Source of the DNA: an uncultured Rhodospirillaceae bacterium
Lineage (GTDB): Bacteria > Pseudomonadota > Alphaproteobacteria > UBA9219
Assembly (NCBI GenBank): GCA_964390005.1
Contig: CAYMGM010000003.1
Coordinates: 14,271-78,270, forward strand
Length of the DNA: 64,000 nt
Direction of reading: 5' to 3'
Notes under the pieces: model-generated
Told to the model about the DNA's origin: nothing
The model's database searches: none
Seen by the model: the letters and a program-made list of their open reading frames with translations, nothing else
Position numbers and translations under genes: made by a program
Shown here: positions 7,894 through 24,520 of the stretch, piece by piece
Position numbering within the stretch: the stretch's first letter is position 1
How the letters are laid out: every line of letters begins with the position of its first letter

Positions 7894-8161
7894 ACTGCTC
7901 AGTAAAAATGCACTCAATCTTTTGTCATGTGACCATTTCTGACCCATTGTGGCCCTATAAAGACAACAACATTTCCTAATTTGGTGTTTCGGAGGGGCGG
8001 ATGGATCGGGAACGGAATGCTCCCTTGCAGCCGATGGCGGACGACAGGGCGTACAAACCGGAGTTCGTTATCGTCTTCAGCGCATTGGCTATCTGCGGGG
8101 CTCTGGTTGGATTCTTGGTTGGTTATCTTTATCGATAACACAAAGGAGGCTTGGGGGCGTT

Positions 8162-11100
8162 ATGCGGAGAGACGAAGGAACAGGGCGTATTTTCTATGCG
8201 CCGACGGATTTGGTGACATATCTTGAATGTCCCTTTGCCACGTTGTTCGATCTTCAACAAACGCTTCACCCCATCAAACTTGCCAAGAGCGAAGACGATA
8301 GCGCGAAGCTTCTTGAACAAAAGGGGCTGGAACACGAACGGCACTATCTTGAACAGCTTCGGCGCGAGGACCTCTCAGTCGTCGAGATCCCGTCGAATAT
8401 TTCCATTCCTCGACGGATCGAGATGACGCGTGCGGCGCTGAAGGCAGGTCCTGATGTGATTTATCAAGCGGCGCTTGGCGACGAGGTTTGGACAGGGTTT
8501 GCCGATTTTCTTTTGAAAACAGACCGGCCTTCGGGGCTGGGGGCGTTCAGCTATGAAGTTGCCGACACGAAACTCGCCCTTTCGCCAAGGCCGGAGTTTG
8601 TCGTTCAGCTTTTTGTCTATTGCGAGCTTTTAGCCAAGGAGCAGGATCTCGTTCCACGCGATCTGCACATTGTCTTGGGCGACAAGAGCAAGGTTTCTTT
8701 GCGCCTCGACGATTTTCGCTATTATCAGAAACTGGCGCAGGAGCGGTTTCTCTCTTTCGTTGAAAAAGGACATATGCCGCAGCCGGGCGAACCTTGCGCC
8801 CATTGTGACAAGTGCCGTTGGTTGAGTCTCTGCGAAGAGGAATGGGAGCGCACGGAACATCTTTCTTTTGTCGCGAATATTCGGGGCGAGCAGATCAAGA
8901 AACTCCGCCGCGCCGGGATCAACAGCATGCGCGATCTTGCAGCCCTGCCGGAGGGGCAGTCCGTTCCAAAAATGGCGCCTGAAACGCTGGCGACATTACG
9001 TGAGCAAGCACGTCTTCAGATCGCCAAAAAGGATGATGGCGAGAATCGCTGTGTTCTTTTGCCGTTTGCCCTGCATAAGGGACTTGCGCGTCTCCCTAAG
9101 CCCAATGAGGGCGATCTTTTCTTCGATATGGAGGGCGATCCGTATTACGACAATCCCCGCCTTGAATATCTCTTTGGCTTTGTTCTTTTGAATGAGCAAA
9201 AAGAGGACGTGTTCAAACCGTTTTGGGCGCATGATCGCGCGGCAGAAAAGAAGGCGTTTGAGGACGTGATGGATTTCATCATGGCGCGGCTTGAAGCCTA
9301 TCCCGACGCCTATATCTATCATTATGCGGCTTATGAAGAGACGGCGCTCAAGAATCTTGCCATGTATCACGGCACGCGCGAGGCCGAGGTCGATCATCTT
9401 TTGCGCAATCGCAAGCTTGTCGATCTTTACAAAGTTGTGCATGAGGGCATCCGCGTTTCCGAACCGCGCTACTCGATCAAAAATCTTGAGCATTTCTATG
9501 CGGAAAAGCGCGGCGGCGAGGTCAAGACAGCGGGCGACAGCATCGTTATGTACGAAAAATGGCGCGTGTTACAGGACGATACCATCCTTCAGGAAATAGC
9601 CGATTACAACGAGTTCGATTGCCGTTCGACCCTGCAATGCCGGGATTGGCTGCTAACCCTCAGACCGGAGGAGATGGATTGGTTTGCGCCTTACACAGAC
9701 GATGCGGAGGCGCGGGAGAACGAGGCAAAGCGTCGAGAAGCAGAAGCGGCGACGGCACAGCTTGCCGCGAACCTGACAAACAGCGTTTCGGAACAGGAAG
9801 CAGCATGGCGCGGTCTTTTAGGGCAGCTCTTGACCTTTCACCGACGTGAAGCAAAGCCGGGATGGTGGGCCTTCTTCACGCGGCGCGATCTAACGGACAA
9901 GGAGCTTATCGACGACGCGGAATGCCTTGGAAAATGTGAACGCGATATATCAGCGCAACCCTATAAACTCGGCCCACGTGACAGGTCTCTGGTTTACGAA
10001 TACAGGTTTCCGCCCCAAGACACAAAAATGCGAGAGGAGTATGATCCGGTCAATGCCTTCACCGGCAAGCGGATCGGTAAGATCGTTGGCCTTGATCGAA
10101 AAGGCGGCAAGGTTGCCCTTAAAATCGGAGACAAGCAGGCAAACCCGCCCGATCTTCTTTCGCTTATCCCGCAGAAACCGATTGAAAATAACGATATTCG
10201 TGGGGCCATCGGACGCTATGCCGAGGCTGTTGCAAGCGGAAGCGTCTCGCGTTACGCGGCCATTACGAGCATCCTGCGCCGTGATTTGCCTCGCCTTTCG
10301 GGGAGGGCTGAGGGGGCAAGCATACTTGGGCAAGGGGATGACACAACGTCGGCCTGTATCGATGCGGTCGGACGCCTCGACAACAGCCATTTGCTGATCC
10401 AAGGTCCGCCCGGAACGGGGAAGACCTATACCTCGTCTCATGCGATTGTTGCCCTTTTGAAGGCTGGAAAACGTGTCGGCGTTGCCTCGAATGCGCATAA
10501 GGCGATCAACAATTTGTTGGAGGCTGTTGAGAAGGAAGCCGAAAAACAGAACGTCAGATTCCGAGGCGTCAAAAAATGCACATATGACGATCATGCGCTT
10601 GCCAGCCGAGGGTTTATCGAGAACACGACAGACCTTAAACAGGCCGAAAGCGGCGGCTATAGCCTTGTCGCAGGCACGGCGTGGCTCTTTTCGCGCGTAG
10701 CGTTTGATCAAACGCTAGATTATCTCTTCGTTGACGAGGCAGGACAAGTCAGCCTCGCCAATGTCGTCGCAATGGGAACGGCGGCGCGCAATATCGTGCT
10801 TGTCGGCGATCAGATGCAGCTTGCTCAGCCAATCCAAGGCGCCCATCCGGGGCAATCCGGCCTTTCGGCTTTGGAATATCTTTTAGGGGACGCGGCAACG
10901 GTTCCGCCCGAACGCGGTATTTTTCTTGCCACGACGCGCCGCATGCATCCAGCCTTGTGCGGTTTTATCTCTGCCGCCGTTTATGAGGGCAAACTGCTTC
11001 CCGAACTCGACAATGCGCGCCGCCATCTTGTGGTGAACGGGCCGGAGGAAGATGAGGCTATTGTTCCGGCAGGCATTCGGTTTATCGAGGTTGAGCACGA

Positions 11101-11584
11101 AGGATGTTCGCAAAAAAGCGAAGAGGAAGTGGAACGTTTAAAAGCCACCTATGATCGCTTGCTTGGCATGAAGTGGGTGGATGAGACCGACGAGGAGCAT
11201 GTGATCGGCAAGGAAGATATCCTTGTCGTCTCGCCCTACAACATGCAGGTCAACGAGCTGCAAAAAGCGCTTGGCCCCGACGCGCGTGTCGGCACGGTGG
11301 ATCGTTTTCAGGGGCAGGAAGCGCCCGTTGTTTTGATCTCGATGGCGACATCGTCAGGCGAGGAGCTTCCGCGCGATATCGAGTTCCTTTTCAGCCGCAA
11401 CCGCCTGAACGTGGCCATCAGTCGCGCAAAATGTTTGGCCGTCCTTTACGCCAACCCGCGTCTCCTCGAAATCCCCTGCAGCACCATCGACCAGATGCGC
11501 CTTGTCAATACGCTTTGCTGGGTTCGTGCTTATGCGCATGCGTTCGGTGGGGGAGAAGTGGTAATTAGCGCGGCAGTGGCTTGA
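8162..11584 (+). CDS. Nuclease-helicase fusion: Cas4/RecB-like PD-(D/E)xK nuclease with Fe-S Cys cluster, TM0106-type RNaseH-like domain, C-terminal Upf1/Dna2-like SF1 helicase (Nhi-like defence candidate)
   Basis: 1140 aa; 'EVADTKL' D-x-K, 'C..CAHCDKCRWLSLC' 4-Cys cluster, 'FFDMEGDPYYD' DxE, Walker A 'LIQGPPGTGKTYT', 'VDEAGQ' motif II, 'VDRFQGQE' motif V/VI. Confidence 0.75.
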   Translation: MRRDEGTGRIFYAPTDLVTYLECPFATLFDLQQTLHPIKLAKSEDDSAKLLEQKGLEHERHYLEQLRREDLSVVEIPSNISIPRRIEMTRAALKAGPDVIYQAALGDEVWTGFADFLLKTDRPSGLGAFSYEVADTKLALSPRPEFVVQLFVYCELLAKEQDLVPRDLHIVLGDKSKVSLRLDDFRYYQKLAQERFLSFVEKGHMPQPGEPCAHCDKCRWLSLCEEEWERTEHLSFVANIRGEQIKKLRRAGINSMRDLAALPEGQSVPKMAPETLATLREQARLQIAKKDDGENRCVLLPFALHKGLARLPKPNEGDLFFDMEGDPYYDNPRLEYLFGFVLLNEQKEDVFKPFWAHDRAAEKKAFEDVMDFIMARLEAYPDAYIYHYAAYEETALKNLAMYHGTREAEVDHLLRNRKLVDLYKVVHEGIRVSEPRYSIKNLEHFYAEKRGGEVKTAGDSIVMYEKWRVLQDDTILQEIADYNEFDCRSTLQCRDWLLTLRPEEMDWFAPYTDDAEARENEAKRREAEAATAQLAANLTNSVSEQEAAWRGLLGQLLTFHRREAKPGWWAFFTRRDLTDKELIDDAECLGKCERDISAQPYKLGPRDRSLVYEYRFPPQDTKMREEYDPVNAFTGKRIGKIVGLDRKGGKVALKIGDKQANPPDLLSLIPQKPIENNDIRGAIGRYAEAVASGSVSRYAAITSILRRDLPRLSGRAEGASILGQGDDTTSACIDAVGRLDNSHLLIQGPPGTGKTYTSSHAIVALLKAGKRVGVASNAHKAINNLLEAVEKEAEKQNVRFRGVKKCTYDDHALASRGFIENTTDLKQAESGGYSLVAGTAWLFSRVAFDQTLDYLFVDEAGQVSLANVVAMGTAARNIVLVGDQMQLAQPIQGAHPGQSGLSALEYLLGDAATVPPERGIFLATTRRMHPALCGFISAAVYEGKLLPELDNARRHLVVNGPEEDEAIVPAGIRFIEVEHEGCSQKSEEEVERLKATYDRLLGMKWVDETDEEHVIGKEDILVVSPYNMQVNELQKALGPDARVGTVDRFQGQEAPVVLISMATSSGEELPRDIEFLFSRNRLNVAISRAKCLAVLYANPRLLEIPCSTIDQMRLVNTLCWVRAYAHAFGGGEVVISAAVA

Positions 11585-11624
11585 AGGGCAAAGGATTTTA
11601 GACGTTTGTTATCAGGAAAGACTC

Positions 11625-12503
11625 TCAGTTTTTTTGTGCTTCACTCGAAGAAGAAAGGTATTTTTGGAAGAAGCCATCAGGAGCATCGTGTTCTGCACAA
11701 CAATAGGCGCGCTCCGCAGCTTGTGAAACAACTTCGCGGTTAACCCGTTTTACAATATCGCTGGGGGCGGATGCCAACAGAAGCCTCTTCGCTTTTGAGT
11801 CAGGCTTGAAGGCGAAAAAGATATGGCGTGGCGTTAGCGGTAGAACAATTACACAATTCGGATCATTTAGGCCCGTCGTAAATAGACAAGGTCTATCTGA
11901 TGTTAAAATACGGTTAGACGCATGGAATGCGTCCATCAAGAACCAATCCATCGACAAAATATCGCTTAAAACGTTTGAATTCGAAATGATTTTAGGAAGT
12001 TGTTTAACGCCAATATTTTCGATAAGCGCAGGGTGGTTTATTTCTACCCAGTCTTTCAGACTTTCGGGTACTTCCCCATTTAATGAGGTTGAGTCTGGTG
12101 AGCTCTTGCCTTCAAGATAATCTGAAAATTGATCGCGGAGTGTTGTTTTGATTCTTGTTACAGTTTCCGGATTTCTGATTTTCATGCTCGAGATAAATTG
12201 AGCCCATCGGATCTTTTCTTTTTTGGTTAAAGGGGCGCCCGAGATAAACTTTGCTTTTATTTCCGCTCCTGCATTATCGATCGGTTTAAAAAACCTCGTT
12301 TCAATCTCAGATCTATCTGAGGCATGAAATGCTTTTGAATATGCATATAGAAAATCCCTATACCCCGTTCCTTTGGGGGCTTTCTGTCTTTTTGAAATTA
12401 TCCCGTCAAAATTTCTAATTTCCCAAAGCTCATGGGTTCCATGTGCTACCCATGATTTCAGGTAAAACTGCGGAACAAAGTGGTGCTTCGTTGAAGTTGC
12501 CAT
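11625..12503 (-). CDS. DUF4238-like protein (defence-island associated family); true start at internal Met
   Basis: Starts MATSTKHHFVPQFYLKSW, which is the HxVPxFYL signature I associate with DUF4238; AGGA RBS 9 nt upstream; the long N-terminal extension in the ORF track is rejected. Confidence 0.6.
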   Translation of the reverse strand: MATSTKHHFVPQFYLKSWVAHGTHELWEIRNFDGIISKRQKAPKGTGYRDFLYAYSKAFHASDRSEIETRFFKPIDNAGAEIKAKFISGAPLTKKEKIRWAQFISSMKIRNPETVTRIKTTLRDQFSDYLEGKSSPDSTSLNGEVPESLKDWVEINHPALIENIGVKQLPKIISNSNVLSDILSMDWFLMDAFHASNRILTSDRPCLFTTGLNDPNCVIVLPLTPRHIFFAFKPDSKAKRLLLASAPSDIVKRVNREVVSQAAERAYCCAEHDAPDGFFQKYLSSSSEAQKN

Positions 12504-12550
12504 TATAATTTTTCCTGCTTGATATCGATTTGAAGCATGATGTCTTTTGG

Positions 12551-13540
12551 TTACGGTAGTCCATCCCATTTCCGCTGTGCGCCAGTCACCATCTTTCGGA
12601 GCGCCGACGGTTTTATCACTTCGACCTGATCGCCCCACATGTAGAGGTGCCATGTCATTTCCAAGAGCCCGCCCGCGCGGAAACGCACGATGAGCGCGCC
12701 ATCCTTTTTCTCTTCCGTTTTCTGGTTTGGATGAAAGACAAACTCTCTCGCGGCTTGTGCCGCCTTGGGCGTGAACTTCCAGACGATGTCTTGTGGTTTC
12801 TCCATCCATACGCCGAAGGATTGGTCGGCATAGGCCTGAAGATCGAACGTAGGATCGCGATGAAAGCCGTCTTTCGTGACGGTAACGCTTTCAATTTGCG
12901 AGAGGATGAAATGATACCGCGCGGCCTCGCGGCCTTTTTCGGTTCCGCCGCCGACTAGATAGTGCCGGTGGCCATAGAGAAAGCCATAGGGCGCAACGCG
13001 CTTTATCTCGGCTTGCGGTTTGCCCTTTGCATGATAGAGAATCTCGACAATCTTGCAGGCTTTGATCGCTTCGCGAAGCGCATGCAGGTGCTCGGCATTC
13101 AATTTAGGCCGGGGGCCGGGGCGCGTGGCAAGACCTTCGGCTTCGATCAGTGCTTCAAGGTCAGGTTCAACCCGGCGCGAGACGTCGCATTTCTGAAGCG
13201 TTTTGATCTTTCCGCAAAGCGACCGCAGAGCCTTCGCTTGCAAACCAAGCCCGCGTCCAGCAAAGGCCTTCGTCGCCATATCAAGGCTGGCCAGCTCGTC
13301 CGGCGTCAAGGCTAAATGCCGCCCGTTGGTCGAGGACGGGATCCGCCAACGTTTGATCCTGTTTTCATCCGTTGTCTCATCGACCTGCGGATAAACGCGC
13401 ACCACGGCATCGCGCATGCGCATGGCCGTGCGGCGGGAGACGTCAAACATATCGATGATTTCCGTGAGGGTGACACCTTCGGCATTCGACTGCATGGCAA
13501 ACGCGAGGTTCAGTAGGTCTTCGGCTTTTTCGAAACGCAT
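12551..13540 (-). CDS. WYL-domain transcriptional regulator (HTH-WYL-WCX; BrxR/CapW-like)
   Basis: 'GVTLTEIIDMFDVSRRTAMR' wHTH; WYL domain 'PYGFLYGHRHYLVGG'; C-terminal WCX-like 'WHLYMWGDQVEVIKP'. Start taken at MRFEKAEDLL. Confidence 0.75.
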   Translation of the reverse strand: MRFEKAEDLLNLAFAMQSNAEGVTLTEIIDMFDVSRRTAMRMRDAVVRVYPQVDETTDENRIKRWRIPSSTNGRHLALTPDELASLDMATKAFAGRGLGLQAKALRSLCGKIKTLQKCDVSRRVEPDLEALIEAEGLATRPGPRPKLNAEHLHALREAIKACKIVEILYHAKGKPQAEIKRVAPYGFLYGHRHYLVGGGTEKGREAARYHFILSQIESVTVTKDGFHRDPTFDLQAYADQSFGVWMEKPQDIVWKFTPKAAQAAREFVFHPNQKTEEKKDGALIVRFRAGGLLEMTWHLYMWGDQVEVIKPSALRKMVTGAQRKWDGLP

Positions 13541-13826
13541 CGACAATCCCCAACAAAAACACTGGGGAAGAGCCTGCCACAAGTGATCCGGTTGGCCAAG
13601 AGCGCATGTGACCGGAATTGTCATGTCCGGGTGCTAGAATAGAAAGCGTTAACAGAGTGGTGTGCCATGAAGCCATTAAAACTTGTCCCGTCAAAAGGTC
13701 TTGAAATGCTTTTGAGTGCATTCGGCATTCTGGGGACTATGGAGGCGAGAAAGACCAAAAAAGCCAAATACACGAACTATATCCTTGTCTATGGCCCCGA
13801 TAATAAGGTCCAAACTGTTGAAACCA

Positions 13827-13860
13827 TAAAATAACGGGATCAACCAATTATAAAATAACG
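13827..13860 (+). promoter_or_regulatory. 11-bp direct repeat (ataaaataacg x2, 12-bp spacer) in the divergent WYL / SNF2-operon intergenic region; candidate operator
   Basis: Seen directly; lies ~95 bp upstream of the SNF2 start. Confidence 0.25.
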
Positions 13861-13954
13861 ATTATTTGTCTTAATGGGCTGTCCTTGGCTGTTCTTTTGT
13901 TTTAATATTTCGCCACAAAATCGGGCAGGCTAAGCGAATCAGAGATCGGAAGAA

Positions 13955-16891
13955 ATGAGGGCGCAAAACGAACAAATCGAGACAGGCGGAGGCGGAAACA
14001 AAACACCCATATCCCCTTATCATGCCAAATATTTTGCGCACGAGATTTCGACCAAGAAATCCGCCGCTGCCGTTGATCGCCTGACAACCTCGCTTTTCGA
14101 TGCCGCCGTTGATTTAAACCCCCATCAGATTGAGGCCGCCCTTTTTGCCCTTCGCTCCCCCTTATCCAAGGGCGTTATGCTGGCCGATGAAGTCGGTCTC
14201 GGCAAAACCATTGAGGCGGGTATCCTGCTTTGCCAAATGTGGGCCGAGCATAAGCGGCGCTTGCTTGTCATTTGCCCAGCCGTTTTGCGCCGCCAATGGT
14301 CGATAGAGCTTGAGGAAAAGTTCAACCTGCCGACGCTTGTGCTGGAAGGCAGTAATTATGCCGAGCGCAGCCAAGCAGGCGATCCCTTCGATTTCAAAGG
14401 CGTCGTCATTATTTCCTACCAGTTCGCGAACCGCTGCGCCGACGAGCTTAAGGCCGGGTTATGGCATTTGGTCGTGATCGACGAAGCCCACAAACTGCGA
14501 AATCTGTTCAAAAAAGACAACAAGATGGGCCGCACGATCCAAGCGGCCTTGGCCGATCACAAAAAGGTCCTTCTTACGGCCACACCTTTACAAAATTCGC
14601 TCATGGAGCTTTACGGCCTCGCCTCGCTGATAGACGAGCGCATCTTTGGCGGGATTGATACGTTCCGCACGGCCTATGTCAACGGGACGCCCAATATAGA
14701 TGATCTCAAAGACCGCCTTGCGCCCTTTGTCCAACGCACCCTTCGGCGACAGGTTTTGGAATATATCCGCTATACACGCCGCGAAGCGGTTACCCAGCCT
14801 TTCAGGCTTTTGGGTGACGAACAAAAACTCTATGACGAAGTCTCTGACTTCCTGTTGCAGCAAGATACCTACGCCATCCCATGGGCGCAAAGAAAGCTGG
14901 TCGTTCTTATTGTTCGCAAGCTTCTGGCGTCTTCCTCTTATGCCCTGATTGGAACGTTAGAGACGATCAAGGCGCGGCTGGAACGTATGCGGGAAACGCG
15001 GCGCGAGGAAAAGTTGAACCTGCGCACCGCCTTTGTCGCCGGGCAAGACATTGATATCGAATATGCCGAAGCAGGAGAGGAGGAAGGGCCCCAGCCCACG
15101 CCCCAGCGCAAGGAAATCGACCTCGAAAAGTTGGCCTATGAAATCGAACAAATCGAAGGTTTCATCGCCCTTGCGCGCTCGATCCGGATTGAAACAAAAG
15201 CCAAAGCGCTTCTCACAGCCCTGCAAACCGGCTTTGCCCGTATGGGGGAACTTGGCGGCGCGCGCAAAGCCCTTGTCTTCACGGAATCCAGTCGCACGCA
15301 GCGTTGCCTGAAGGACTATCTGGAAGACAACGGCTATCGCGGCAAGATCGTGACATTCAACGGCCAGAACACAGACGATCTTGCGAAGGATATTTACGCC
15401 CATTGGCTCAAAAAGAACGCCGAAACAGGCCGCGCCACGGGATCGAAAAACGTCGATATGCGCATGGCCTTGGTCGATTTCTTCCGCGACCGTGCCGAAG
15501 TGATGATCGCGACCGAGGCCGCCGCCGAAGGCATCAACCTTCAGTTCTGTTCGCTTATCGTCAATTACGACCTGCCTTGGAACCCGCAACGCATCGAACA
15601 GCGCATTGGCCGCTGCCATCGTTACGGGCAAAAGCACGATGTCGTCGTCATCAACTTCCTGAACCAAGACAATCTTGCCGATCAACGCATCTATGAATTG
15701 CTGAAAGAGAAGTTCCAGCTTTTCGACGGCGTCTTTGGCGCATCAGACGAGGTTCTAGGCCGCGTCGAATCCGGCATCGATTTCGAAAAGCGTGTGCTAG
15801 AGATTTTCGAGACCTGCCGCAAACCGGAAGAAATTGAACAAGCCTTCGTCGATCTTCAGGCCGAGATGGAAGAGCCAATCCAAAGCCGCATCGCCGAAAC
15901 GCGCACTCTGTTGTTCGAGCATTTCGACGAAGATGTCACCAAACACCTGAAGTTCAGCATGGAGGCGACAAAACAGCGCCTCGATACCGTCACGCACCAT
16001 TTCTGGGAGCTGACAAAGTTCGTCTATGCAGACCAGTTTTTCTTCAACGACGAAAAGCTGATCTTCGGCGACGATGCCGCCTTCATCGCGCGCGGCGAAA
16101 GGCCGGAAGGGGGCGAACATACGCCCATCTTCCACTATCTGGAAACGCGGCAGGGCGAGGTCAAAACAGGTCTGTCCGGCCAGCCCTATCGCATGGCGGG
16201 CCCGATGGGCGAGGCCGCCCTTCAAAAAGGGCGCGCGATGGAGACGCCACCCGCCGCGCTGGCCTTTGATTTTGCCTCATACCCCCACAAAATCGCCCTT
16301 TTGGAAGAACAAAGCGGCAAGCGCGGCTGGCTTTGGTGCGACAAGCTGACAATCAAAACGTTCGAGGAAACGGAAAGCCTGATCTTCACCGTCTGCGACG
16401 AAAATGGTGCGATCCTGCCGCCCGCGTTCGGCGAAAAGCTTTTCCTTCTATCGGCCACCAACGAAGGGGCCTTGGCCCCATGCCCCCACCAAAACGCGGT
16501 CGAAGCCGCGCGCGCGTCCAGCATCGAAGCCAGTCTGAAAGAATCGGAAATCAGCAACCACAGCTATTTCGAGGAAGAGCTGGATAAGCTCGACCGCTGG
16601 GCCGAGGATCTGAAAACGGGCCTAGAGATGGAGCTGAAACAGCTCGACCGCGACATCCGCGAGGCTGCCCGTCAATCGAAACAGAGGGTCAGCCTTGCCG
16701 AAAAGCTGGCTTTTCAGAAGCAAAAAGCGGCCCTCGAAAAACGCCGCTCCCAAAAACGCCACGAGCTTTTCCAAAGCCAAGACAAGATTGACGCAAGGCG
16801 CGAAGAGCTTATTAATCAATTAGAACGGCAACTGCAGGATAGCAGGCATGAGGTGGTGCCGCTGTTTTGCGTGGGATGGAGGGTTTCGTGA
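13955..16891 (+). CDS. SNF2/RAD54-family helicase (DISARM DrmD-like)
   Basis: 978 aa; motif I 'ADEVGLGKTIEAG', 'VVIDEAHKLRN', 'LLTATPLQNSLMELY', C-lobe 'IATEAAAEGINLQ...NYDLPWNPQRIEQRIGRCHRYGQ'. Confidence 0.85.
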   Translation: MRAQNEQIETGGGGNKTPISPYHAKYFAHEISTKKSAAAVDRLTTSLFDAAVDLNPHQIEAALFALRSPLSKGVMLADEVGLGKTIEAGILLCQMWAEHKRRLLVICPAVLRRQWSIELEEKFNLPTLVLEGSNYAERSQAGDPFDFKGVVIISYQFANRCADELKAGLWHLVVIDEAHKLRNLFKKDNKMGRTIQAALADHKKVLLTATPLQNSLMELYGLASLIDERIFGGIDTFRTAYVNGTPNIDDLKDRLAPFVQRTLRRQVLEYIRYTRREAVTQPFRLLGDEQKLYDEVSDFLLQQDTYAIPWAQRKLVVLIVRKLLASSSYALIGTLETIKARLERMRETRREEKLNLRTAFVAGQDIDIEYAEAGEEEGPQPTPQRKEIDLEKLAYEIEQIEGFIALARSIRIETKAKALLTALQTGFARMGELGGARKALVFTESSRTQRCLKDYLEDNGYRGKIVTFNGQNTDDLAKDIYAHWLKKNAETGRATGSKNVDMRMALVDFFRDRAEVMIATEAAAEGINLQFCSLIVNYDLPWNPQRIEQRIGRCHRYGQKHDVVVINFLNQDNLADQRIYELLKEKFQLFDGVFGASDEVLGRVESGIDFEKRVLEIFETCRKPEEIEQAFVDLQAEMEEPIQSRIAETRTLLFEHFDEDVTKHLKFSMEATKQRLDTVTHHFWELTKFVYADQFFFNDEKLIFGDDAAFIARGERPEGGEHTPIFHYLETRQGEVKTGLSGQPYRMAGPMGEAALQKGRAMETPPAALAFDFASYPHKIALLEEQSGKRGWLWCDKLTIKTFEETESLIFTVCDENGAILPPAFGEKLFLLSATNEGALAPCPHQNAVEAARASSIEASLKESEISNHSYFEEELDKLDRWAEDLKTGLEMELKQLDRDIREAARQSKQRVSLAEKLAFQKQKAALEKRRSQKRHELFQSQDKIDARREELINQLERQLQDSRHEVVPLFCVGWRVS

Positions 16892-17718
16892 GGATTGTTT
16901 GGAAAACCATAATTGATTTTTGGTTGGCCTCACTAGACGTAGTGACTATCTGGGTTCAGCCTGTGCTGGTTGGGGTGAGCGTTCTTGCAAGTGCTTTTTT
17001 AACTTATGATTTTTCTCATGTTTACTCGTATGTTCCAAGTTGGAAGCATCAGATTGATCTACTCAGATCGGCCCTTCCCATTACGCTAGTGTTGACCCAA
17101 GTCTTCCTGTTGGCTGTGTCCATTTTTCAGGGAATTAGGCAATGCTCAATTCGCAAGTTGAAAAAACAAGTGGATGAATACAGAGAAAAAATAAATATCA
17201 TTGCAAGCAATGTTGAAACGCTTGTTGATGGTATATTGTTGAGATTGGCGGAAAAGCTAAAATTGGACAAAGGAGATCCATCGCGGCTAACAATTTATAT
17301 CCACAACAGCAATGGACACTTTATTTCCTTCGGACGGTACTCCCCAGACCCATCTCTGAATGAAAAGGGAAGGAGCCTGCTGCCTGACAACGCGGGGTGT
17401 ATATCTCAGGCGTGGAAGAGTGATTGGTGTTATGAGGGGAATTTGAGTTCTAAAGATTGCCGCCAAAAATACAAAGTTGAGCAGTCCGTTGTTGATGGAT
17501 TGAGAATGAAATCAAGGTTCTATGCCGTTAAAAGAATTGACTCATCAAACAAGCGACCTTTGGCTGTCGTTGTTTTTGAATCTGTCACCGCAAACAAGTT
17601 TGACGAACAAAAAATCAGAAACCTTCTGAACGGAGAAGAAGCATATCTAGCAGAGATAATCGATTGTCTGAAAGAGCATATTCCTAACCCGCAAGATGCG
17701 CAGAAATGGGGGTTCTAA
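16876..17718 (+). CDS. AT-rich membrane protein: 2-3 N-terminal TM helices plus cytoplasmic domain (PanT-like toxin candidate)
   Basis: ATG overlaps the last codons of the SNF2 gene; hydrophobic stretches 'VQPVLVGVSVLASAFL' and 'ALPITLVLTQVFLLAVSIF'; markedly lower GC than neighbours. Confidence 0.6.
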   Translation: MEGFVRIVWKTIIDFWLASLDVVTIWVQPVLVGVSVLASAFLTYDFSHVYSYVPSWKHQIDLLRSALPITLVLTQVFLLAVSIFQGIRQCSIRKLKKQVDEYREKINIIASNVETLVDGILLRLAEKLKLDKGDPSRLTIYIHNSNGHFISFGRYSPDPSLNEKGRSLLPDNAGCISQAWKSDWCYEGNLSSKDCRQKYKVEQSVVDGLRMKSRFYAVKRIDSSNKRPLAVVVFESVTANKFDEQKIRNLLNGEEAYLAEIIDCLKEHIPNPQDAQKWGF

Positions 17719-18206
17719 TGACCGCACTTAAAGACATCATTGCTTATGTGTGTAAGACCTATCCTTCGAACTTGCAGGATGAGTTGTCAAATGCACGTGT
17801 CACCAAAATGATTTACCTTGCTGATTGGAGGCAAGCGATCGAACATGGGCGCCAGATTTCAGATATTGACTGGTTCTTCGACAATTACGGGCCTTACGTT
17901 GATGATGTGAGGAAAGAAGTTGCTGAAAACAATTCGATTTTTGACCTTCAGCATGTTCAGAATATGTACGGGCAGCCAAAGAACCTGATTAAGCTTAAGG
18001 ATAAGAACTATGCGCCGTCCCTTTCTGATGATCAAAAGAAGTCAATTGATCATGTTATTGAAATGACTAAAAAAATGTATTGGGACACATTCATCAAGCT
18101 CGTTTATTCAACATATCCCATAACTTCTTCAGAAAGGTATTCGCATCTCAATTTGCTTGAGAAGGCTTCTGAATATAAGGCTCAGAAAGAAGAAAAAGCA
18201 CCATGA
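17706..18206 (+). CDS. Panacea-domain (DUF4065, SocA/PanA-like) protein, putative antitoxin
   Basis: 'TKMIYLADWRQAIEHGRQISDIDWFFDNYGPYVDDV' matches the DUF4065 core (LqKLlYfa.gw......pLf...feAw.yGPV). Alternative start ATG 17718 overlaps upstream TAA (TAATG). Stop overlaps mod ATG (ATGA). Confidence 0.6.
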   Translation: MGVLMTALKDIIAYVCKTYPSNLQDELSNARVTKMIYLADWRQAIEHGRQISDIDWFFDNYGPYVDDVRKEVAENNSIFDLQHVQNMYGQPKNLIKLKDKNYAPSLSDDQKKSIDHVIEMTKKMYWDTFIKLVYSTYPITSSERYSHLNLLEKASEYKAQKEEKAP

Positions 18207-19888
18207 CCAAAAAGCAAAAGCTGGAATTGACGTGGATTGGGAAGGATCAGAGGCCTCGGTTGGAGCCTCGAATTTTGGTGGAGGATGATGCGCGGTCGTA
18301 TCATGCGGACAAACGCGTTACGGATCATGATCTATTCGACAATAAGCTGATCTTTGGCGACAATTTGCTCGCGCTCAAGGCGCTGGAGCAGGAGTATGCG
18401 GGGAAGGTCAAATGCGTCTTTATCGATCCGCCCTATAACACCGGATCGGCCTTCACGCATTACGACGACGGGCTTGAGCATTCCATCTGGCTCGGCCTCA
18501 TGCGCGACCGCTTGGAGATCCTGCGCAACCTCCTCTCCGAAGACGGCTCAATCTGGATCACCATCGACGACAACGAATGCCATTACCTCAAGGTGCTTTG
18601 CGATGAGGTGTTTGGAAGGGGAAACTTTTTGTGCGATATCGCTTGGGAGAAGCGATATTCTCCTCCACCGGACACAAAGGACTTTGGCTATGTACACGAT
18701 CATATTTTGGTCTACAGAAAGACACCAGCTTTTCGACGCAACTTATTGCCCTTAACGGAAGACCAATCTGGTCGATATAAAAATCCAGATAACGATCCCC
18801 GCGGCCCTTGGAAAGCTATGGATTACACTTGTCGATATTCTGCCGACGAACGCCCTAATCTCAATTATCCGATTATACAGCCCCACACGAAGAAAGAGAT
18901 ATGGCCAAACAAAACGCGAGTCTGGGCAATGTCGCGGGAAGTTCATGAAAAGAACGAACGAGAGAATAGAATTTGGTGGGGAACAAAAGGCACAAATAAT
19001 GTTCCTGCACTAAAAAACTTTTTCTCGGATATCAATCAGGGCATGATGCCAATGTCATTATGGAAACATACTTTGGCAGGCCATAATCAAGATGCGATGA
19101 AAGAAATGTTATCTCTCTTTGGGCGAGATGTTTTTTCAACACCAAAACCCGAGCGCTTGATACATACGGTTCTTCACATAGCCACCAATCCCAACGACCT
19201 CGTCCTCGACTCCTTCGCGGGTTCTGGCACCACCGGCGCTGTTGCTCATAAGATGGGGCGGCGGTGGATTATGATTGAGTTGGGGGAGCATTGTCATACG
19301 CATATCATTCCGCGCCTCAAGAAAGTGATCGATGGCGAGGATAAGGGCGGGATTACCGAGGCGGTGGCTTGGAAAGGCGGCGGGGGCTTTCGGTATTATG
19401 CGCTGGCGCCGTCTCTCATCACAATGGACAAATACGGTCAAGCGGTCATCAACAAAGACTATGACCCCGCCATGCTGACGCAGGCCATGTGCAAGCTGAT
19501 GGGCTTTGCCTATGCGCCGTCTGAGACCGTTTATTGGCAGCAAGGTCATTCAACCGAGACCGACTTTATCTATGTGACGACGCAAACGCTGGATCAGGCG
19601 CAGCTCGCCGCTCTTTCGGAAGAAGTGGGGGACAAGCAAAGCCTCCTCATCTGCTGCTCGGCCTTTCGCGGCAAGGCAGACGGTTTCGAAAACCTAACCC
19701 TCAAAAAAATCCCTCGCGCGGTGTTGGCCAAATGCGAATGGGGCCACGACGACTACAGCCTCAACGTCCAAAACCTGCCTCTCGCCGAGGAGGACCAAGT
19801 GGACATCCCCACGCCGCGCAAACAAAAAGCCAAAGCGCGTGCCAAGGCAAAAGCGGCGGAACCTTCTTTGTTTGGAGATGTGGAATGA
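18203..19888 (+). CDS. mod: Type III restriction-modification Mod subunit (beta-class N6-adenine DNA methyltransferase)
   Basis: 561 aa; 'FIDPPYN' motif IV precedes 'DSFAGSGTTGAVA' motif I (beta permutation); central variable TRD. Confidence 0.85.
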   Translation: MTKKQKLELTWIGKDQRPRLEPRILVEDDARSYHADKRVTDHDLFDNKLIFGDNLLALKALEQEYAGKVKCVFIDPPYNTGSAFTHYDDGLEHSIWLGLMRDRLEILRNLLSEDGSIWITIDDNECHYLKVLCDEVFGRGNFLCDIAWEKRYSPPPDTKDFGYVHDHILVYRKTPAFRRNLLPLTEDQSGRYKNPDNDPRGPWKAMDYTCRYSADERPNLNYPIIQPHTKKEIWPNKTRVWAMSREVHEKNERENRIWWGTKGTNNVPALKNFFSDINQGMMPMSLWKHTLAGHNQDAMKEMLSLFGRDVFSTPKPERLIHTVLHIATNPNDLVLDSFAGSGTTGAVAHKMGRRWIMIELGEHCHTHIIPRLKKVIDGEDKGGITEAVAWKGGGGFRYYALAPSLITMDKYGQAVINKDYDPAMLTQAMCKLMGFAYAPSETVYWQQGHSTETDFIYVTTQTLDQAQLAALSEEVGDKQSLLICCSAFRGKADGFENLTLKKIPRAVLAKCEWGHDDYSLNVQNLPLAEEDQVDIPTPRKQKAKARAKAKAAEPSLFGDVE

Positions 19889-20415
19889 GCAATCTTATTG
19901 ATGGGCTAGCTTTGGTCGTTGCGCTGGGATCAGCTGTGGTTTCTTGTTTATCTGCGGGAGCTGCAAAGGCCTCCGCAGACGCTGCAAAAATCTCTGCGGA
20001 GGAAACGAAGAAACAACGAAAGATTAGCCAATATGTGACATTGTCCCCCCATTTTTTTGCTGTAAGCCAGATTCTTTCAGCCCTAAGCGATGGAAAGGAA
20101 ACACCGAAGCGTCTTCTTGCGGCAAGAGACTCTCTTGTCTTTTTAAAGAAAGCTTTACCAAAGGACGAAGAGCTAATTGCCGTTGTCAATGAGATCGAAT
20201 ACAGATTTGAAGAGACGATCTCCGATGGCATTACAACCTTTAGAAGTCATTTAGTAAATTACCCAGCAAGGGAGACTGAGGATAACTTTGCTCAATTCAA
20301 TCTCGATCATAACGTCGATAAGGATCCAACTAAAAAAAGATTTAAAATTGCGCAACTAAAGGAAATGCTGTCGATGATTGAAGGAAGATATATTTCTTTG
20401 GATGACACCCCATGA
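19885..20415 (+). CDS. Small membrane-anchored protein of unknown function inserted between mod and res
   Basis: ATGA overlaps with both the mod stop and the res start; N-terminal TM helix 'LIDGLALVVALGSAVVSCLSAGAA'; AT-rich. Confidence 0.55.
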   Translation: MSNLIDGLALVVALGSAVVSCLSAGAAKASADAAKISAEETKKQRKISQYVTLSPHFFAVSQILSALSDGKETPKRLLAARDSLVFLKKALPKDEELIAVVNEIEYRFEETISDGITTFRSHLVNYPARETEDNFAQFNLDHNVDKDPTKKRFKIAQLKEMLSMIEGRYISLDDTP

Positions 20416-23066
20416 ACCGTTTCCTCAACGCCATCTCAAACCGCCTCTCTCTCCGCACGCCGCAGCGGGAGTCTCTTGAAATCCTTGCGCGCGTGGCGGA
20501 CGTCGTGCCGCTCAACAAAACGCGCGATGTGGCTGAGGCGCTGCGGGTCATTCACGAGGATTATCCGAGCGTTGAGGATTTTGAGCGCGATTTTCCTTCG
20601 CTCTGTTTTGCGCTTGCCACGGGCGTTGGCAAAACGCGGTTGATGGGGGCGTTTATCGCTTACTTGCATCTTGCGAAGGGCATGAAGCATTTCTTCGTGC
20701 TGGCCCCAAACCTCACCATCTATAACAAGCTCATTGCCGATTTCACGCCAAACACGCCGAAATATGTGTTTCAGGGGATTGCGGAGCTGGCGATCACGCC
20801 GCCGGAAATCATCACGGGCGACAATTACGAAAGCGGGCGCGGCATTCGCGGCACCGACCTTTTGGGCCAAGCCGACAACATTCACGTCAACATCTTCAAC
20901 ATCTCGAAAATCAATACCGAGACGCGGGGCGGGGCCTCGCCGCGCATCAAGCGGCTTTCGGAATACTTAGGCGAAAGCTATTTCGAATATCTGTCCAAGC
21001 TCGACGATCTTGTTTTGCTGATGGATGAATCGCACCGTTACCGCGCCTCGGCGGGCATTCGGGCGCTGAATGAACTGAACCCCGTTCTTGGGCTTGAACT
21101 GACCGCGACGCCGCAGATTGAAAACGGTGCAAAGGCCGTGCCGTTCAAGAACGTGATCTATAGCTATCCGCTCTACAAGGCGATGGAAGACGGCTATGTG
21201 AAGGAACCGGCGGTTGCCACGCGTGAAAACTTCGATCCATCTAAGTTCACGGAAGACGAGCTGGAGAAAATCAAGCTCGAAGACGCTATTTGCATTCATG
21301 AAAACGTCAAGGCCGAGCTGAAGGTCTATGCCGATAACAACAATCGGCCTTTGGTCAAGCCCTTTATCCTCGTCGTCGCGCAGGACACGACGCATGCCGA
21401 AAATCTGATGGCTTTGATTAAATCGGATGCCTTTTTCGAGGGGCGCTATCGGGATCGCGTGATTACGGTGCATTCGAACCAGCGCGGCGAGGAAAAGGAC
21501 GAGACGATCCAGAAACTTCTCTCGGTCGAAGACCCTGCCGAGCCGACCGAGATTGTTATTCACGTCAATATGCTGAAAGAAGGATGGGACGTCACCAACC
21601 TTTACACGATTGTGCCTTTGCGTGCGGCGAACTCGCGCACGCTTGTTGAACAATCGATTGGGCGCGGGCTTCGTTTGCCTTATGGAAGGCGCACAGGTGT
21701 TGCCGCCGTAGATCGTTTGACCATTGTGGCACACGACCGGTTTGATGAGATTATCCGCGAGGCGAACGATCAACACTCGATCATCCGCGCAGGCGTTGTG
21801 ATTGGCAAAGACATTGCCGCCAAGCCGAAGCAAGCCGTTGAGATTAAATCGAACATTGAATTGATCGTGACCGGCGAAGCGCCGGTGAAACCGGAACAAA
21901 AGCCTTTGTTCACAGAAGAAGAGCGTCCGATTGCCAAGGCCTCGTTTGAGGCGATACGGGATTTTGAGCGTCTGCCAAGCTCGCGCGATCTTCTGAAGCC
22001 GGAAACGCAACAGAAAATCGTCGAGCGCGTGATTGAGAAAATCACGCCCGCGCAGGGAACGCTTGGCGGGATCATTGAAAAGCCCAATGTTGAGAACATC
22101 GTCCGGCGTCAGATTGAAGCCTATGTCCAGAACACCATCGACATTCCGCGTGTGACCGTGACGCCGATTGGCGCGGATAGCTATGCGTTCACGGACTTCG
22201 ATCTTGATACAAAAAACCTGCCGCGCCTTCAGCCTGTCGAGGATAAAATCCTGATCCAGAATTTGCGCACTTATGAGCGCGAGCAAATGGCCAAGGGCGA
22301 GGCCATCGGCCAAGAAGCGCGACTGGAGGACTATATCGTCGCCGTTCTGATCGATAAGGATGACATTTCCTATGATGACCACGCCGACCTGCTCTACAAA
22401 CTGGCGGGGCAAATGGTGGCGTTTATTTTTTCCTATTTGGGAGATACCGAGAAGACGAAAAACGTCATTCAGTTTTATCGCACAAAGCTGGCCGATTTGA
22501 TCCATGCGCAGATGGATGCGCATGTGAAGCTTGGCTACACGGACTTTCAGGCTTCCGTTACGCGCGGGTTTGAGCAGCCGAAAATGGGTGCGGTAACGAT
22601 TGATGCGGGCGAGAAAGTCAGAAACTTCCGGCAGACGTTGGCCAATGTTTCCGACATTCGCGGCATGGTGTTCGAAGGTTTTTCAAAATGCCTCTATCCG
22701 CAGCAGAAGTTTGATTCCGACACGGAACGCCAGATGGCTATCTTGCTCGAAGACGAAAAGAGCGTTCTGAAATGGTTCAAGCCTCTGCGCAATGACGTTA
22801 AAATCTACACGAATGAAAATGACGGTTATGAGCCTGATTTTGTCGTGGAAACTTCTGGCGAGAAGCTTCTTATCGAGACCAAACGTGCGGACGAAGTCGA
22901 AAGCGATGCGGTCCAGCAGAAAGCTCGCGCCGCACTCAAATGGTGCGAGGCGGCCACAAAACATGAAACGGAGAATGGAGGCAAACCGTGGCGGTATCTT
23001 CTGGTGCCCCACGATGCCGCTAAGCCGAATGCGACGCTTGGTGGATTATTGGTTCAGTACCGCTAG
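20412..23066 (+). CDS. res: Type III restriction enzyme Res subunit (SF2 helicase plus C-terminal PD-(D/E)xK nuclease)
   Basis: 884 aa; Walker A 'LATGVGKTRLMG', 'LLMDESHRY' DEAH-like, C-terminal 'EPDFVVE...LLIETKRADE'. Confidence 0.85.
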   Translation: MNRFLNAISNRLSLRTPQRESLEILARVADVVPLNKTRDVAEALRVIHEDYPSVEDFERDFPSLCFALATGVGKTRLMGAFIAYLHLAKGMKHFFVLAPNLTIYNKLIADFTPNTPKYVFQGIAELAITPPEIITGDNYESGRGIRGTDLLGQADNIHVNIFNISKINTETRGGASPRIKRLSEYLGESYFEYLSKLDDLVLLMDESHRYRASAGIRALNELNPVLGLELTATPQIENGAKAVPFKNVIYSYPLYKAMEDGYVKEPAVATRENFDPSKFTEDELEKIKLEDAICIHENVKAELKVYADNNNRPLVKPFILVVAQDTTHAENLMALIKSDAFFEGRYRDRVITVHSNQRGEEKDETIQKLLSVEDPAEPTEIVIHVNMLKEGWDVTNLYTIVPLRAANSRTLVEQSIGRGLRLPYGRRTGVAAVDRLTIVAHDRFDEIIREANDQHSIIRAGVVIGKDIAAKPKQAVEIKSNIELIVTGEAPVKPEQKPLFTEEERPIAKASFEAIRDFERLPSSRDLLKPETQQKIVERVIEKITPAQGTLGGIIEKPNVENIVRRQIEAYVQNTIDIPRVTVTPIGADSYAFTDFDLDTKNLPRLQPVEDKILIQNLRTYEREQMAKGEAIGQEARLEDYIVAVLIDKDDISYDDHADLLYKLAGQMVAFIFSYLGDTEKTKNVIQFYRTKLADLIHAQMDAHVKLGYTDFQASVTRGFEQPKMGAVTIDAGEKVRNFRQTLANVSDIRGMVFEGFSKCLYPQQKFDSDTERQMAILLEDEKSVLKWFKPLRNDVKIYTNENDGYEPDFVVETSGEKLLIETKRADEVESDAVQQKARAALKWCEAATKHETENGGKPWRYLLVPHDAAKPNATLGGLLVQYR

Positions 23067-23094
23067 TGGAGGCAAAATCCATTTTTTAGCTATT

Positions 23095-23364
23095 TTAGTC
23101 CGTTTTCATAAGATGTTGGGGGCCATATTCTCGTATCCATTTGGCACGGGTTAGGTGTGACGCCCAACATTGGCGTGCAACATCAGGGGCGAGACTTGGA
23201 TCGCGATGTAGCACGATGCGGGAGACCTCGCGCCAGTCGGCGCCTTCCGCTTCGGCGTCGAGAATGCGCGCATAGGTGATGAAGTGCGCCTCATCATAGG
23301 GCGTAATGCTCTCTGCGGAGGGCGCTTCGTCGGCGACATCGGGATCGAGGATCGTCTTGGGCAT
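23095..23364 (-). CDS. Small conserved ICE-associated hypothetical protein (divergent partner of DUF2285 gene)
   Basis: 89 aa ORF, high GC, divergent from 23681. Confidence 0.45.
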   Translation of the reverse strand: MPKTILDPDVADEAPSAESITPYDEAHFITYARILDAEAEGADWREVSRIVLHRDPSLAPDVARQCWASHLTRAKWIREYGPQHLMKTD

Positions 23365-23469
23365 AGGGTAGTTTTGACCTTATCTCGTGGGGCTGTCCAT
23401 CCGGTTTCGCGGGCCGCTTTGGGAACGTTGAGGGCATTCTATGTCGGGAAGGCTTCAAAAATCTTAAGA

Positions 23470-23530
23470 AACTAGGAATATATTCCTTGACAAAATGGGA
23501 TAATTCCCATATTGACATTCCTACGACGTA
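23470..23530 (+). promoter_or_regulatory. Putative promoter with flanking palindromes upstream of DUF2285 gene
   Basis: 12-bp perfect palindrome ggaatatattcc, TTGACA hexamers, and tggga-taat-tccca inverted repeat. Confidence 0.3.
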
Positions 23531-23598
23531 CTGCGCCCATCTGCCCCCGGTTTTGCGGACTTGGCGATGATGAGGACGGGAGTGACTTGTTTTTGCGA

Positions 23599-23622
23599 GA
23601 CGGCTTTTGGCCGTCTTTTTTT
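23599..23622 (+). terminator. Terminator-like hairpin in the 5' leader of the DUF2285 gene (attenuator or sRNA terminator candidate)
   Basis: gacggc-ttttg-gccgtc followed by ttttttt. Confidence 0.35.
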
Positions 23623-23680
23623 GTGGCCGAAAGCCTCCTGCGTCGGAACCTGATTTCCTTTTTTTCGTTGGAGAAGATTC

Positions 23681-24520
23681 ATGCCCGAGACCGCTGTGTC
23701 CGGCCTGCGGCCGTGCGTCGACTGGCGCAATGCCGAAGATTATCGCCATCTTCTGGATTATGACCGCGCCGGATGGGCTGGCGAATGGCTCAGGCGCAAT
23801 CCGGCTTTTGTTGCCGATGTCCATCGTGCGCCCCATTATTCGGATGCGTTCCGCTTCGGCTCTGATCTGGATGTTGCCATCATAGATGGAGGGAAAGATA
23901 CATCGTTAGCGCGTTGGGGATTGCACGGTATTTGCCCAGGGACTGAGCCGCTTTTCTTCTGGCGTCCGGAGGTCAATGCGCAGGTTCTGACGCTTGAAGC
24001 CAAAAAGGCAACGAACGAAGCCGAGGGGCTCGACCTGCGTCAATGTACTTTGTTTAAGGCGGCGTTTCGCGGCGCGGATCAAGATACGCATCTTCTGTTT
24101 GGGGACGGCGTCCGGACGCTGCAGGTCGTCGTCAAGGGCGATGTTTCCTTTGAAAGCCCCATGAACTTTCGGTGCGCCTTGTCCGGTTGGAGCGAGTTTG
24201 AGACCAAGCCATTGAGCTTACGTCGGTTGTGTTGTCTTTACAGGCTGGGACGTCTTTCCAGTTCCCTTTATCCCAAGGAGCAACGGGCCCATCGCTGGGT
24301 CGAAATGATCCGTGCATGGGACGGCGTTCAGGCCGGGGCCAAGCAACGCGATATTGCCATCGCTATTTATGGCGATCGCGCGGTGCGTGAAGATTGGGAT
24401 TCAGGCTATCGCACCCGTGTGCAAAGATTGATCCGTTCATCGGAACGGATGGTCGGCGGCGGTTATCTGGACCTTCTGCGTAGCGGCAGCGGAGACACGG
24501 CGCACAAAGGCGCTTTATGA
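23681..24520 (+). CDS. DUF2285-family protein (ICE leading-region regulator-like)
   Basis: 279 aa; matches my recollection of the DUF2285 proteins that open alphaproteobacterial ICE backbones. Confidence 0.6.
   Translation: MPETAVSGLRPCVDWRNAEDYRHLLDYDRAGWAGEWLRRNPAFVADVHRAPHYSDAFRFGSDLDVAIIDGGKDTSLARWGLHGICPGTEPLFFWRPEVNAQVLTLEAKKATNEAEGLDLRQCTLFKAAFRGADQDTHLLFGDGVRTLQVVVKGDVSFESPMNFRCALSGWSEFETKPLSLRRLCCLYRLGRLSSSLYPKEQRAHRWVEMIRAWDGVQAGAKQRDIAIAIYGDRAVREDWDSGYRTRVQRLIRSSERMVGGGYLDLLRSGSGDTAHKGAL

Follow-up and report, generated by a model that had tools for sequence, protein, structure and literature searches.

A WYL-domain regulator gene that lies among defence genes raises the question of which genes it controls and in which direction, and WYL regulators in such positions are usually taken to be repressors of the BrxR/CapW type. 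We addressed this question in a 64,000-nucleotide stretch of DNA from an uncultured Rhodospirillaceae bacterium (contig CAYMGM010000003.1, positions 14,271 to 78,270; the whole stretch is called the window below), for which a preliminary description had proposed a BrxR/CapW-like regulator heading a two-gene unit with a DUF4238-like gene, opposite an SNF2/restriction-modification (R-M) operon. Our analysis points instead to a mobile activator of the type of Caulobacter crescentus DriD, with predicted operator boxes directed toward the flanking genes and with DUF4238 as mere cargo, a reading to which we give a probability of roughly 0.6. The genes concerned are the following.

12551-13540, minus strand: gene of the DriD-family regulator, with winged helix-turn-helix (wHTH), three-helix bundle, WYL and WCX regions; 329 aa, protein beginning MRFEKAEDLL.
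11625-12503, minus strand: DUF4238 gene (PF14022), 292 aa, apparent low-GC cargo.
12504-12550, minus strand: regulator-DUF4238 junction, 47 bp, with an AGGAAA ribosome-binding site.
8162-11584, plus strand: gene of a 1140-aa RecB-like nuclease/superfamily 1 (SF1) helicase (TIGR03491, E 1e-81; AAA_11/AAA_12).
13955-23066, plus strand: SNF2 (DrmD-like) and type III R-M operon, from library profile matches.

The WYL gene was present as first described, and Pfam recognized WYL (E 1.3e-6) and WCX (E 4.8e-13) domains in its product, the N-terminal HTH remaining below threshold; the broader statement that a wHTH-WYL-WCX regulator adjoins defence genes was likewise borne out. The longer frames in the mechanical list (357 aa for the regulator, 394 aa for DUF4238) are not the genes. 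We chose the 329-aa regulator frame because all homologues are about 329 aa long and start with MRFEKA, and the 292-aa DUF4238 frame because its homologues begin a few residues before the HH motif.

Searched as a single sequence against all of the PDB, regulator residues 1-320 aligned with residues 1-315 of C. crescentus DriD at E 1e-60 (8tp8, 9pfq, 7tzv), and beyond DriD this search returned no match at E ≤0.01. A profile of the clade gave E values of 1e-81 for DriD, 6e-5 for PafB, 0.008 for PafC, 0.15 (7t8k) and 0.76 (7qfz) for BrxR and 0.98 (9c5g) for CapW, and the BrxR and CapW matches were restricted to the WYL domain. The domain order wHTH, three-helix bundle, WYL, WCX was found in full, with the bundle region (residues 74-135) covered by a match to 9cu3 that spans residues 74-320. 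In the recognition helix, R36, R37, T38, R41 and R43 are the same as in DriD by pairwise alignment, and in a 33-sequence alignment of the clade R37, T38 and R41 are invariant and R36 and R43 nearly so; the DNA-contacting roles of the DriD residues, the DriD structure 8TP8 and the consensus site ATACGAC-N7-GTCGTAT have been described (PMC10853764). The ssDNA (single-stranded DNA) pocket of DriD comprises Y168, R176/R178, Y192, W206, Y240 and R288/E289 (PMC9186387, PMC10853764), and the aligned residues here are Y169, Y194, F211, W245, L293 and E294. The R176/R178 pair is kept only approximately: E and K take its place in the alignment, next to K180 and R181, and R207 aligns to Ile; Leu at position 288 has been described among DriD homologues. 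By these comparisons the regulator is a predicted DriD-clade activator and not of the BrxR/CapW type.

This bears directly on the model implied by the preliminary description, in which a BrxR/CapW-like repressor sitting on its own promoter would silence a WYL-DUF4238 operon, and perhaps the R-M operon too, until phage ssDNA releases it. Repressors of this kind that sense ssDNA and control defence systems are established (PMC9122601, PMC11662680), and BrxR and CapW share with the present regulator the broad superfamily and the domain names, are found by diverse defence systems and, in the case of CapW, also sense ssDNA. They differ in being repressors of about 290-300 aa that lack the helical bundle, in having operators that lie between promoter and gene, and in a similarity to the regulator that is at noise level. 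The BrxR/CapW-like label is not supported, given the E values (0.15-0.98 against 1e-81 for DriD) together with the presence of the activator-type helical bundle.

The predicted operators were not visible to a search with the known DriD site. The strict pattern CGAC-N7-GTCG, with up to one mismatch, had no occurrence in the 414-bp intergenic region between the regulator and the SNF2/type III R-M operon (13541-13954), and its total in the window was at chance level (37 found, 36 expected). The box was found only by comparing the sequences 5' of the regulator gene among relatives, for which we used 79 genome loci with regulator homologues at 41-81% identity (numbered with the prefix L where single loci are named). 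With the consensus ATGTGACAAAATCGGTCACAT (GTGAC-N7-GTCAC), a 21-bp motif occurs in 12 of the 13 close-clade loci, at -83 to -95, and also in many loci at about 50% identity; the Caulobacter-type GCGAC…GTCGC is found in two loci, L015 and L016. The half-site in the window locus is TGAC, against CGAC in the strict DriD pattern. A position weight matrix built from the conserved sites 5' of the regulator found 96 sites scoring at least 17 in 1.3 Mb of loci, compared to 1 in shuffled sequence; over the 64-kb window just two sites exceeded the null maximum of 19.2, with scores of 26.0 (13606-13626) and 23.5 (7927-7947). These two boxes and the elements that follow them are given below.

13606-13626, plus strand: box 1, DriD-type predicted operator ATGTGACCGGAATTGTCATGT (GTGAC-N7-GTCAT), 66-86 nt 5' of the WYL ATG.
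13633-13640, plus strand: -10-like element GCTAGAAT, 6 nt past box 1 and directed away from the WYL gene.
13667-13834, plus strand: 55-codon open reading frame (ORF), a lipoprotein-gene remnant; first reading frame 3' of the predicted box-1 promoter.
7927-7947, plus strand: box 2, ATGTGACCATTTCTGACCCAT, oriented like box 1.
7954-7961, plus strand: -10-like element CCTATAAA, 6 nt past box 2.
8001-8138, plus strand: 45-aa ORF, its product with a single transmembrane helix at the C-terminal end (…FVIVFSALAICGALVGFLVGYLYR); annotated as a gene in the public assembly.

In Caulobacter, the DriD box and the -35 position overlap, and a -10 element with the consensus GCtANAWC follows at a constant spacing; DriD activates the operon divergent from driD with no regulation of driD itself (PMC13004042). 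The geometry of box 1 matches the DriD consensus site, and both window boxes, on the plus strand, have the orientation of the didA and driD/CCNA_03891 promoters printed in that work. The spacing of 6 nt between each window 21-mer and its -10-like element is also that of the printed didA promoter, the CCNA_03891 sequence having 7 nt. Among the close loci, a GnTA-type -10-like 8-mer stands at the 6-nt spacing on the side away from the regulator in 11 of the 12 that are readable, and no comparable -10-like element was found on the regulator side of the box. The boxes upstream of the nuclease-helicase gene have TA at positions 3-4 of the element in 5/5 loci (TAtAA in four, TACAA in L060) at the same spacing. 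For boxes outside the matrix training, TA occurs at the expected position in 15/33 in the activating direction versus 2/33 in the other. The conserved geometry suggests that box 1 and box 2 are DriD-type operators at the -35 position, and a repressor of the regulator's own promoter would not lead one to expect a conserved -10 across the box from the regulator, at the spacing known from DriD.

The genes 3' of box 2 point to a recurrent partner. The 1140-aa protein combines a TM0106-type RecB/Cas4-like nuclease, an RNase-H-like domain and an SF1 helicase, and when the neighbours in the 79 regulator loci were clustered, this nuclease-helicase was the most frequent family (10 loci). In five close loci it is convergent with the regulator, with one or more variable genes between, and in all five a box lies 87-264 nt 5' of its gene. 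A conserved peptide of 45-52 aa with one transmembrane helix follows the box in 4/5 of these loci (8001-8138 in the window), and homologous peptides of 47-52 aa occupy the same place in L078, L011 and L013. In size and position these peptides are like Caulobacter DidA, a likeness that is not demonstrable in sequence. As a reverse check, we gathered 80 metagenome loci with a nuclease-helicase alignment; a first metagenome scan with a single nuclease-helicase sequence had given no match, and the alignment-based scan succeeded. A DriD-like gene is present in 14 of these 80 loci, in 6 of them directly divergent across 68-164 bp, and a related palindrome followed after 6 nt by GCTA or GTTA toward the nuclease gene was seen in five loci (three of the six divergent ones, plus L140 and L169 with longer gaps). 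The link between regulator and nuclease-helicase recurs in two independently gathered locus sets and has not been described as a system before. From these gene neighbourhoods, the probable recurrent partner of the regulator is the nuclease-helicase and not DUF4238.

By homology with DriD, the WYL/WCX pocket would bind ssDNA, which DNA damage, replicating phage or conjugative DNA entering the cell can supply; this would free the wHTH domains, and the dimer would then occupy the GTGAC-N7-GTCAC boxes at the -35 position and recruit RNA polymerase to the -10 at its fixed distance. Box 1 would drive a divergent transcript that crosses the lipoprotein remnant (13667-13834) and may extend into the SNF2/type III R-M operon, and box 2 would drive the 45-aa membrane peptide and the 1140-aa nuclease/helicase. 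If the regulator, like DriD, does not autoregulate, DUF4238 would be constitutive and not induced. A further step, which we regard as speculative, is that the regulator, the 45-aa peptide and the nuclease/helicase make up a mobile, ssDNA-triggered module for inducible defence or an abortive response, in which the activator would arm the nuclease-helicase upon the appearance of phage or other foreign ssDNA; the same set would also serve as the fixed scaffold of a cargo hotspot where stand-alone systems (DUF4238, RmuC and PDC-M57B, for example) insert and borrow the transcription of the sensor.

We then considered the place of DUF4238. The assignment of the protein to this family, previously made from the motif HHFVPQFYLK (residues 7-16), was confirmed by a PF14022 match with E 2.5e-28 (99.8 bits against a cut-off of 27) over profile positions 1-277 of 281, and all family-invariant residues are present. 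The dedicated two-gene unit fared differently. DUF4238 was found in 0/79 regulator-homologue loci, and a WYL gene stood beside 0/10 DUF4238 homologues (two metagenome contigs and eight annotated plasmids); the conserved downstream defence system that is a trait of BrxR and CapW loci is missing here, and the pairing with DUF4238 is unique to this locus. In the 10 contexts the DUF4238 homologues stand alone with no constant neighbour, next to an S8 protease, transposases, AbiH, CBASS-like genes or DUF5677. The GC content of the gene is 0.42, compared to 0.566 for the regulator and 0.547 for the nuclease-helicase (42% against flanks of 55-57%). The gene 3' of the regulator differs in nearly every relative, and in every close relative this slot holds unrelated genes of lowered GC content (RmuC with a SAP-domain protein, PDC-M57B, lipoproteins, family-less proteins), which in several relatives overlap or abut the regulator stop codon. 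From composition and context, DUF4238 looks like a recently acquired, low-GC, single-gene cargo in a variable slot between the regulator and the nuclease-helicase.

As to its transcription, the two genes are co-directional, and a shared transcript from the regulator's promoter is the most likely source of DUF4238 mRNA, because the 47-bp gap holds a ribosome-binding site and no terminator-like or promoter-like site. In this gap a consensus scan found neither kind of site, no stable hairpin was predicted (fold z-score 0.16) and no box reached a matrix score of 10. The counts of this promoter and terminator scan were at chance level overall, and its sole strong promoter-like match in the intergenic region was on the minus strand (13874-13847), with no gene to serve. 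The predicted box and its -10 point at the divergent transcript, and DUF4238 has no box of its own. In five relatives a near-perfect box (e.g. AAGTGACAAAAGTGGTCACTT) begins within the regulator stop codon, about +985 from the regulator start (L007 10988-11008, L008 10988-11008, L022, L028 and L064), which suggests that the downstream cargo there has its own regulator-dependent promoter; at the regulator stop the window has at most a degenerate half of that box (CCAAAAGACATCAT).

A different possibility is that DUF4238 is a fully independent, constitutive single-gene defence cassette with its own promoter, that the regulator is irrelevant to it and that their adjacency is an accident of insertion. 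The low GC content of the gene, the isolated position of its homologues in varied defence-like surroundings (AbiH, CBASS-like genes, transposases) and the sufficiency of one gene in E. coli agree with this; the upstream gap of just 47 bp without promoter-like hexamers, and a slot behind the regulator that is regularly filled by operonic cargo, do not. We consider full independence doubtful, and DUF4238 as cargo carried behind a DriD-type activator remains the reading that we prefer.

Points of several kinds weigh against that preference. About half of the strong boxes have no TA at the expected spacing, and each half-site departs from that of Caulobacter at two positions (GTGAC vs ACGAC) despite identical base-contacting arginines. 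The box also sits just 5' of a weak -35-like TTGGCC of the regulator's own gene, and there may be autoregulation, and hence induction or repression of DUF4238. A DUF4238 promoter may lie inside the 3' end of the WYL gene, beyond the reach of the consensus scan, and SNF2, 120 bp beyond the remnant ORF, may or may not be reached by the box-1 transcript. Binding, response to ssDNA and direction of regulation are all predicted from homology and conserved geometry. The box abutting TTGGCC also speaks for the repressor model, and the adjacent, co-directional arrangement of regulator and DUF4238 without a terminator found between them, like the cargo genes that overlap or abut the regulator stop codon in relatives, would suit it as well. 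Set against the grouping of the sequence with DriD (1e-81) and not with BrxR or CapW (0.15-1), the activator-type bundle, the position of the conserved -10 and the solitary occurrence of the DUF4238 pairing, these features leave a repressor of its own operon unlikely.

On the divergent side of the regulator, the small ORF that the preliminary description placed at 13657-13824 is given by the ORF list as 13667-13834, a shift of ten bases. Only its last approximately 22 codons match a 131-aa lipoprotein gene, which is intact at the same position in L007, L008 and L009, and by blastn 128 bp of the window stand in for 366 bp of this gene. Judged from this alignment, the small ORF is a remnant of the lipoprotein gene. 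In most close relatives (L004, L005, L006, L010, L011, L013, L060 and L078) the DriD-type promoter faces between one and three lipoprotein genes (product lengths about 149, 176 and 143 aa), and the first shows a weak BamE-domain match; one idea for lipoproteins under an ssDNA-sensing activator is entry exclusion.

The same intergenic region contains the direct repeat to which a control function had been ascribed.

13826-13836 and 13850-13860: 11-bp repeat ATAAAATAACG, two exact copies 24 bp apart, probably fortuitous.

As a functional operator or iteron-like site for the SNF2/R-M operon or for the regulator, the repeat would be well placed, its exact 11-mers lying 95-129 bp 5' of the SNF2 start, and only 3% of 2000 dinucleotide shuffles of the intergenic region contain an exact repeat of at least 11 bp. 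Such a repeat is nevertheless present in 27/308 same-size tiles of the window (9%). The first copy shares bases with the remnant ORF's stop codon, the motif bears no relation to the family-conserved box, and neither copy is kept in the closest loci (L007 and L008), of which L007 has a homologous SNF2 operon. The two exact copies are real; their role as a control element was rejected, at a frequency near chance and with no conservation in L007 or L008, and we hold it to be highly improbable.

The operon beyond the repeat encodes, in order, SNF2, a 283-aa protein, a Panacea/SocA antitoxin-domain protein, type III Mod, a 176-aa protein and type III Res. Mod (18203-19888; MTase_III, E 4.5e-218) and Res (20412-23066; REase_III, E 4.8e-229) together identify a type III R-M system. 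The SNF2 protein scored 691 bits against DrmD_b, under the NCBIfam cut-off of 950, and a DISARM reading was rejected since the SNF2 match is below cut-off and the other operon genes are Mod and Res, not DrmA, DrmB or DrmC. Both L007 and L011 have a homologous SNF2 gene with Mod (and L007 also Res) on the side divergent from the regulator, and in L011 three lipoprotein genes and an 82-aa gene stand between regulator and SNF2. Just before the SNF2 start, a -10-like TAATAT (13905-13910) and the block GCGAATCAGAGAT are common to the window and L007 (TAATGT there); both may belong to a constitutive promoter and leader of the SNF2/R-M operon, with no good -35 at this place. Between SNF2 and Mod, a low-GC pair (16867-18206, about 0.42) consists of the 283-aa protein, without a family match, overlapping the 166-aa Panacea/SocA protein, and looks like a toxin-antitoxin cassette (PanA-type) inserted inside the R-M operon. 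The 176-aa ORF (19885-20415, GC 0.39-0.48), also without a family match, is wedged between Mod and Res, and a weak homologue (40% over 96 aa) occurs at the same place in L011.

The window carries an integrative conjugative element, with its backbone at 23681-58747 and a tyrosine integrase (57317-58507) that adjoins a tRNA-Ala gene (58672-58747). Its genes include a DUF3363 relaxase, TraG, TrbE/L/I, a 755-aa ParB-like protein, a 1472-aa Strawberry-notch-type helicase-methylase and a DUF2285-type regulator (RovC_DNA-bd). The first approximately 5.2 kb of the window are housekeeping genes, and the regulator locus is the cargo end of the element, opposite the integrase. No similar plasmid DNA was found by megablast of 8000-24000.

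Compared with DriD itself (PDB 8TP8, 7TZV, 9PFQ/9PFV/9PGA), the regulator has the same domain order and nearly the same length (329 aa; DriD, 327 aa). Its upstream region likewise holds a pseudo-palindrome with 5-bp arms and a 7-bp spacer, in a position where the box would stand in for the -35, with a GCtA-type -10 at fixed spacing toward the divergent gene, and its predicted targets, a small membrane peptide and a nuclease, resemble didA and bapE/recJ. The differences are that the regulator lies on a conjugative element and has several paralogues per genome in some metagenome-assembled genomes (MAGs), that the half-site is GTGAC and not ACGAC, that the box is 66-95 nt from the start codon and not about 17 nt, that the partner is a RecB-like nuclease/SF1 helicase, that both flanks are variable slots with defence or defence-candidate genes, and that this system is known from sequence alone. 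DdaA of Moraxellaceae is a WYL activator and chromosomal master regulator that replaced SOS and is reported to increase R-M and CRISPR immunity under DNA damage (PMC12392091); compared by description only, it follows the same logic as proposed here for box 1 and the SNF2/type III R-M operon. A mobile regulator of DriD-type activator architecture, with its own operator variant and amid defence cargo, suggests that some defence islands may be switched on by an ssDNA-sensing activator, and the two boxes with their predicted start sites provide a testable regulon. The main interest of the locus lies in this predicted activator-type control of a defence hotspot and in the undescribed partnership of regulator and nuclease/helicase.

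A single DUF4238 protein from an E. coli P2 hotspot confers strong resistance to T7, its molecular function then being unknown (Rousset et al. 2022, PMC9122126). With a validated single-gene anti-T7 member in the family, the designation of the present protein as merely a candidate effector understates what is known, and a literature search found no later paper with a DUF4238 mechanism. Both proteins belong to PF14022, have the single-gene format and come from a variable hotspot of a mobile element; the gene here is of an alphaproteobacterial subfamily, is likened to the E. coli protein by Pfam family and not by direct comparison, and has a putative anti-phage role by this analogy. The family comprises 1874 cluster representatives, and the nearest relatives are 54%, 46% and 42% identical. 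The protein had no match in PADLOC 2.0 (even at E up to 1) or PHROGs, tblastn against phage genomes gave none, sequence and profile searches against solved structures were null, and no secondary Pfam families were found among 149 aligned members. An AlphaFold2 model built from these 149 sequences was confident (pLDDT 95.7, pTM 0.92), and Foldseek of the model against the PDB gave no solved relative (best E 0.13, TM 0.10). Its only viral fold match was an uncharacterised protein of the P2-like Stenotrophomonas phage Smp131 (E 4e-7, TM 0.58). W18, E68, R110 and D203 are invariant, near-invariant residues include H8, D76 and N255, and the four invariant residues with H8 could conceivably form an enzyme active site. 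DUF4238 is, on the present comparisons, not part of a conserved two-gene system, and its confident model has no solved structural relative.

Several smaller observations concern the same genes. The gene maps of relatives are approximate, greedy ORF calling having misjudged some neighbours. The convergent stop codons of the nuclease-helicase and DUF4238 genes are only 40 bp apart (11585-11624), and a convincing terminator was found there on neither strand; induced transcription of the nuclease gene could continue antisense into DUF4238 and the regulator. In L002 (3-3310), a subtilase (Peptidase_S8) gene encoding more than 800 aa ends 3 bp before the start of the nearest DUF4238 relative (54%), as if the two formed one operon. 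On rhizobial plasmids (L085 5872-6372; L087 4372-5115) a DUF5677 gene converges on DUF4238 and overlaps its 3' end, which may be a recurrent pairing. Several regulator paralogues per genome, each by a different cargo, were seen in two MAGs (L004/L007/L009 in JAQUYN01 and L005/L008 in JBFXDW01), and L033 and L066 carry tandem copies of the regulator.

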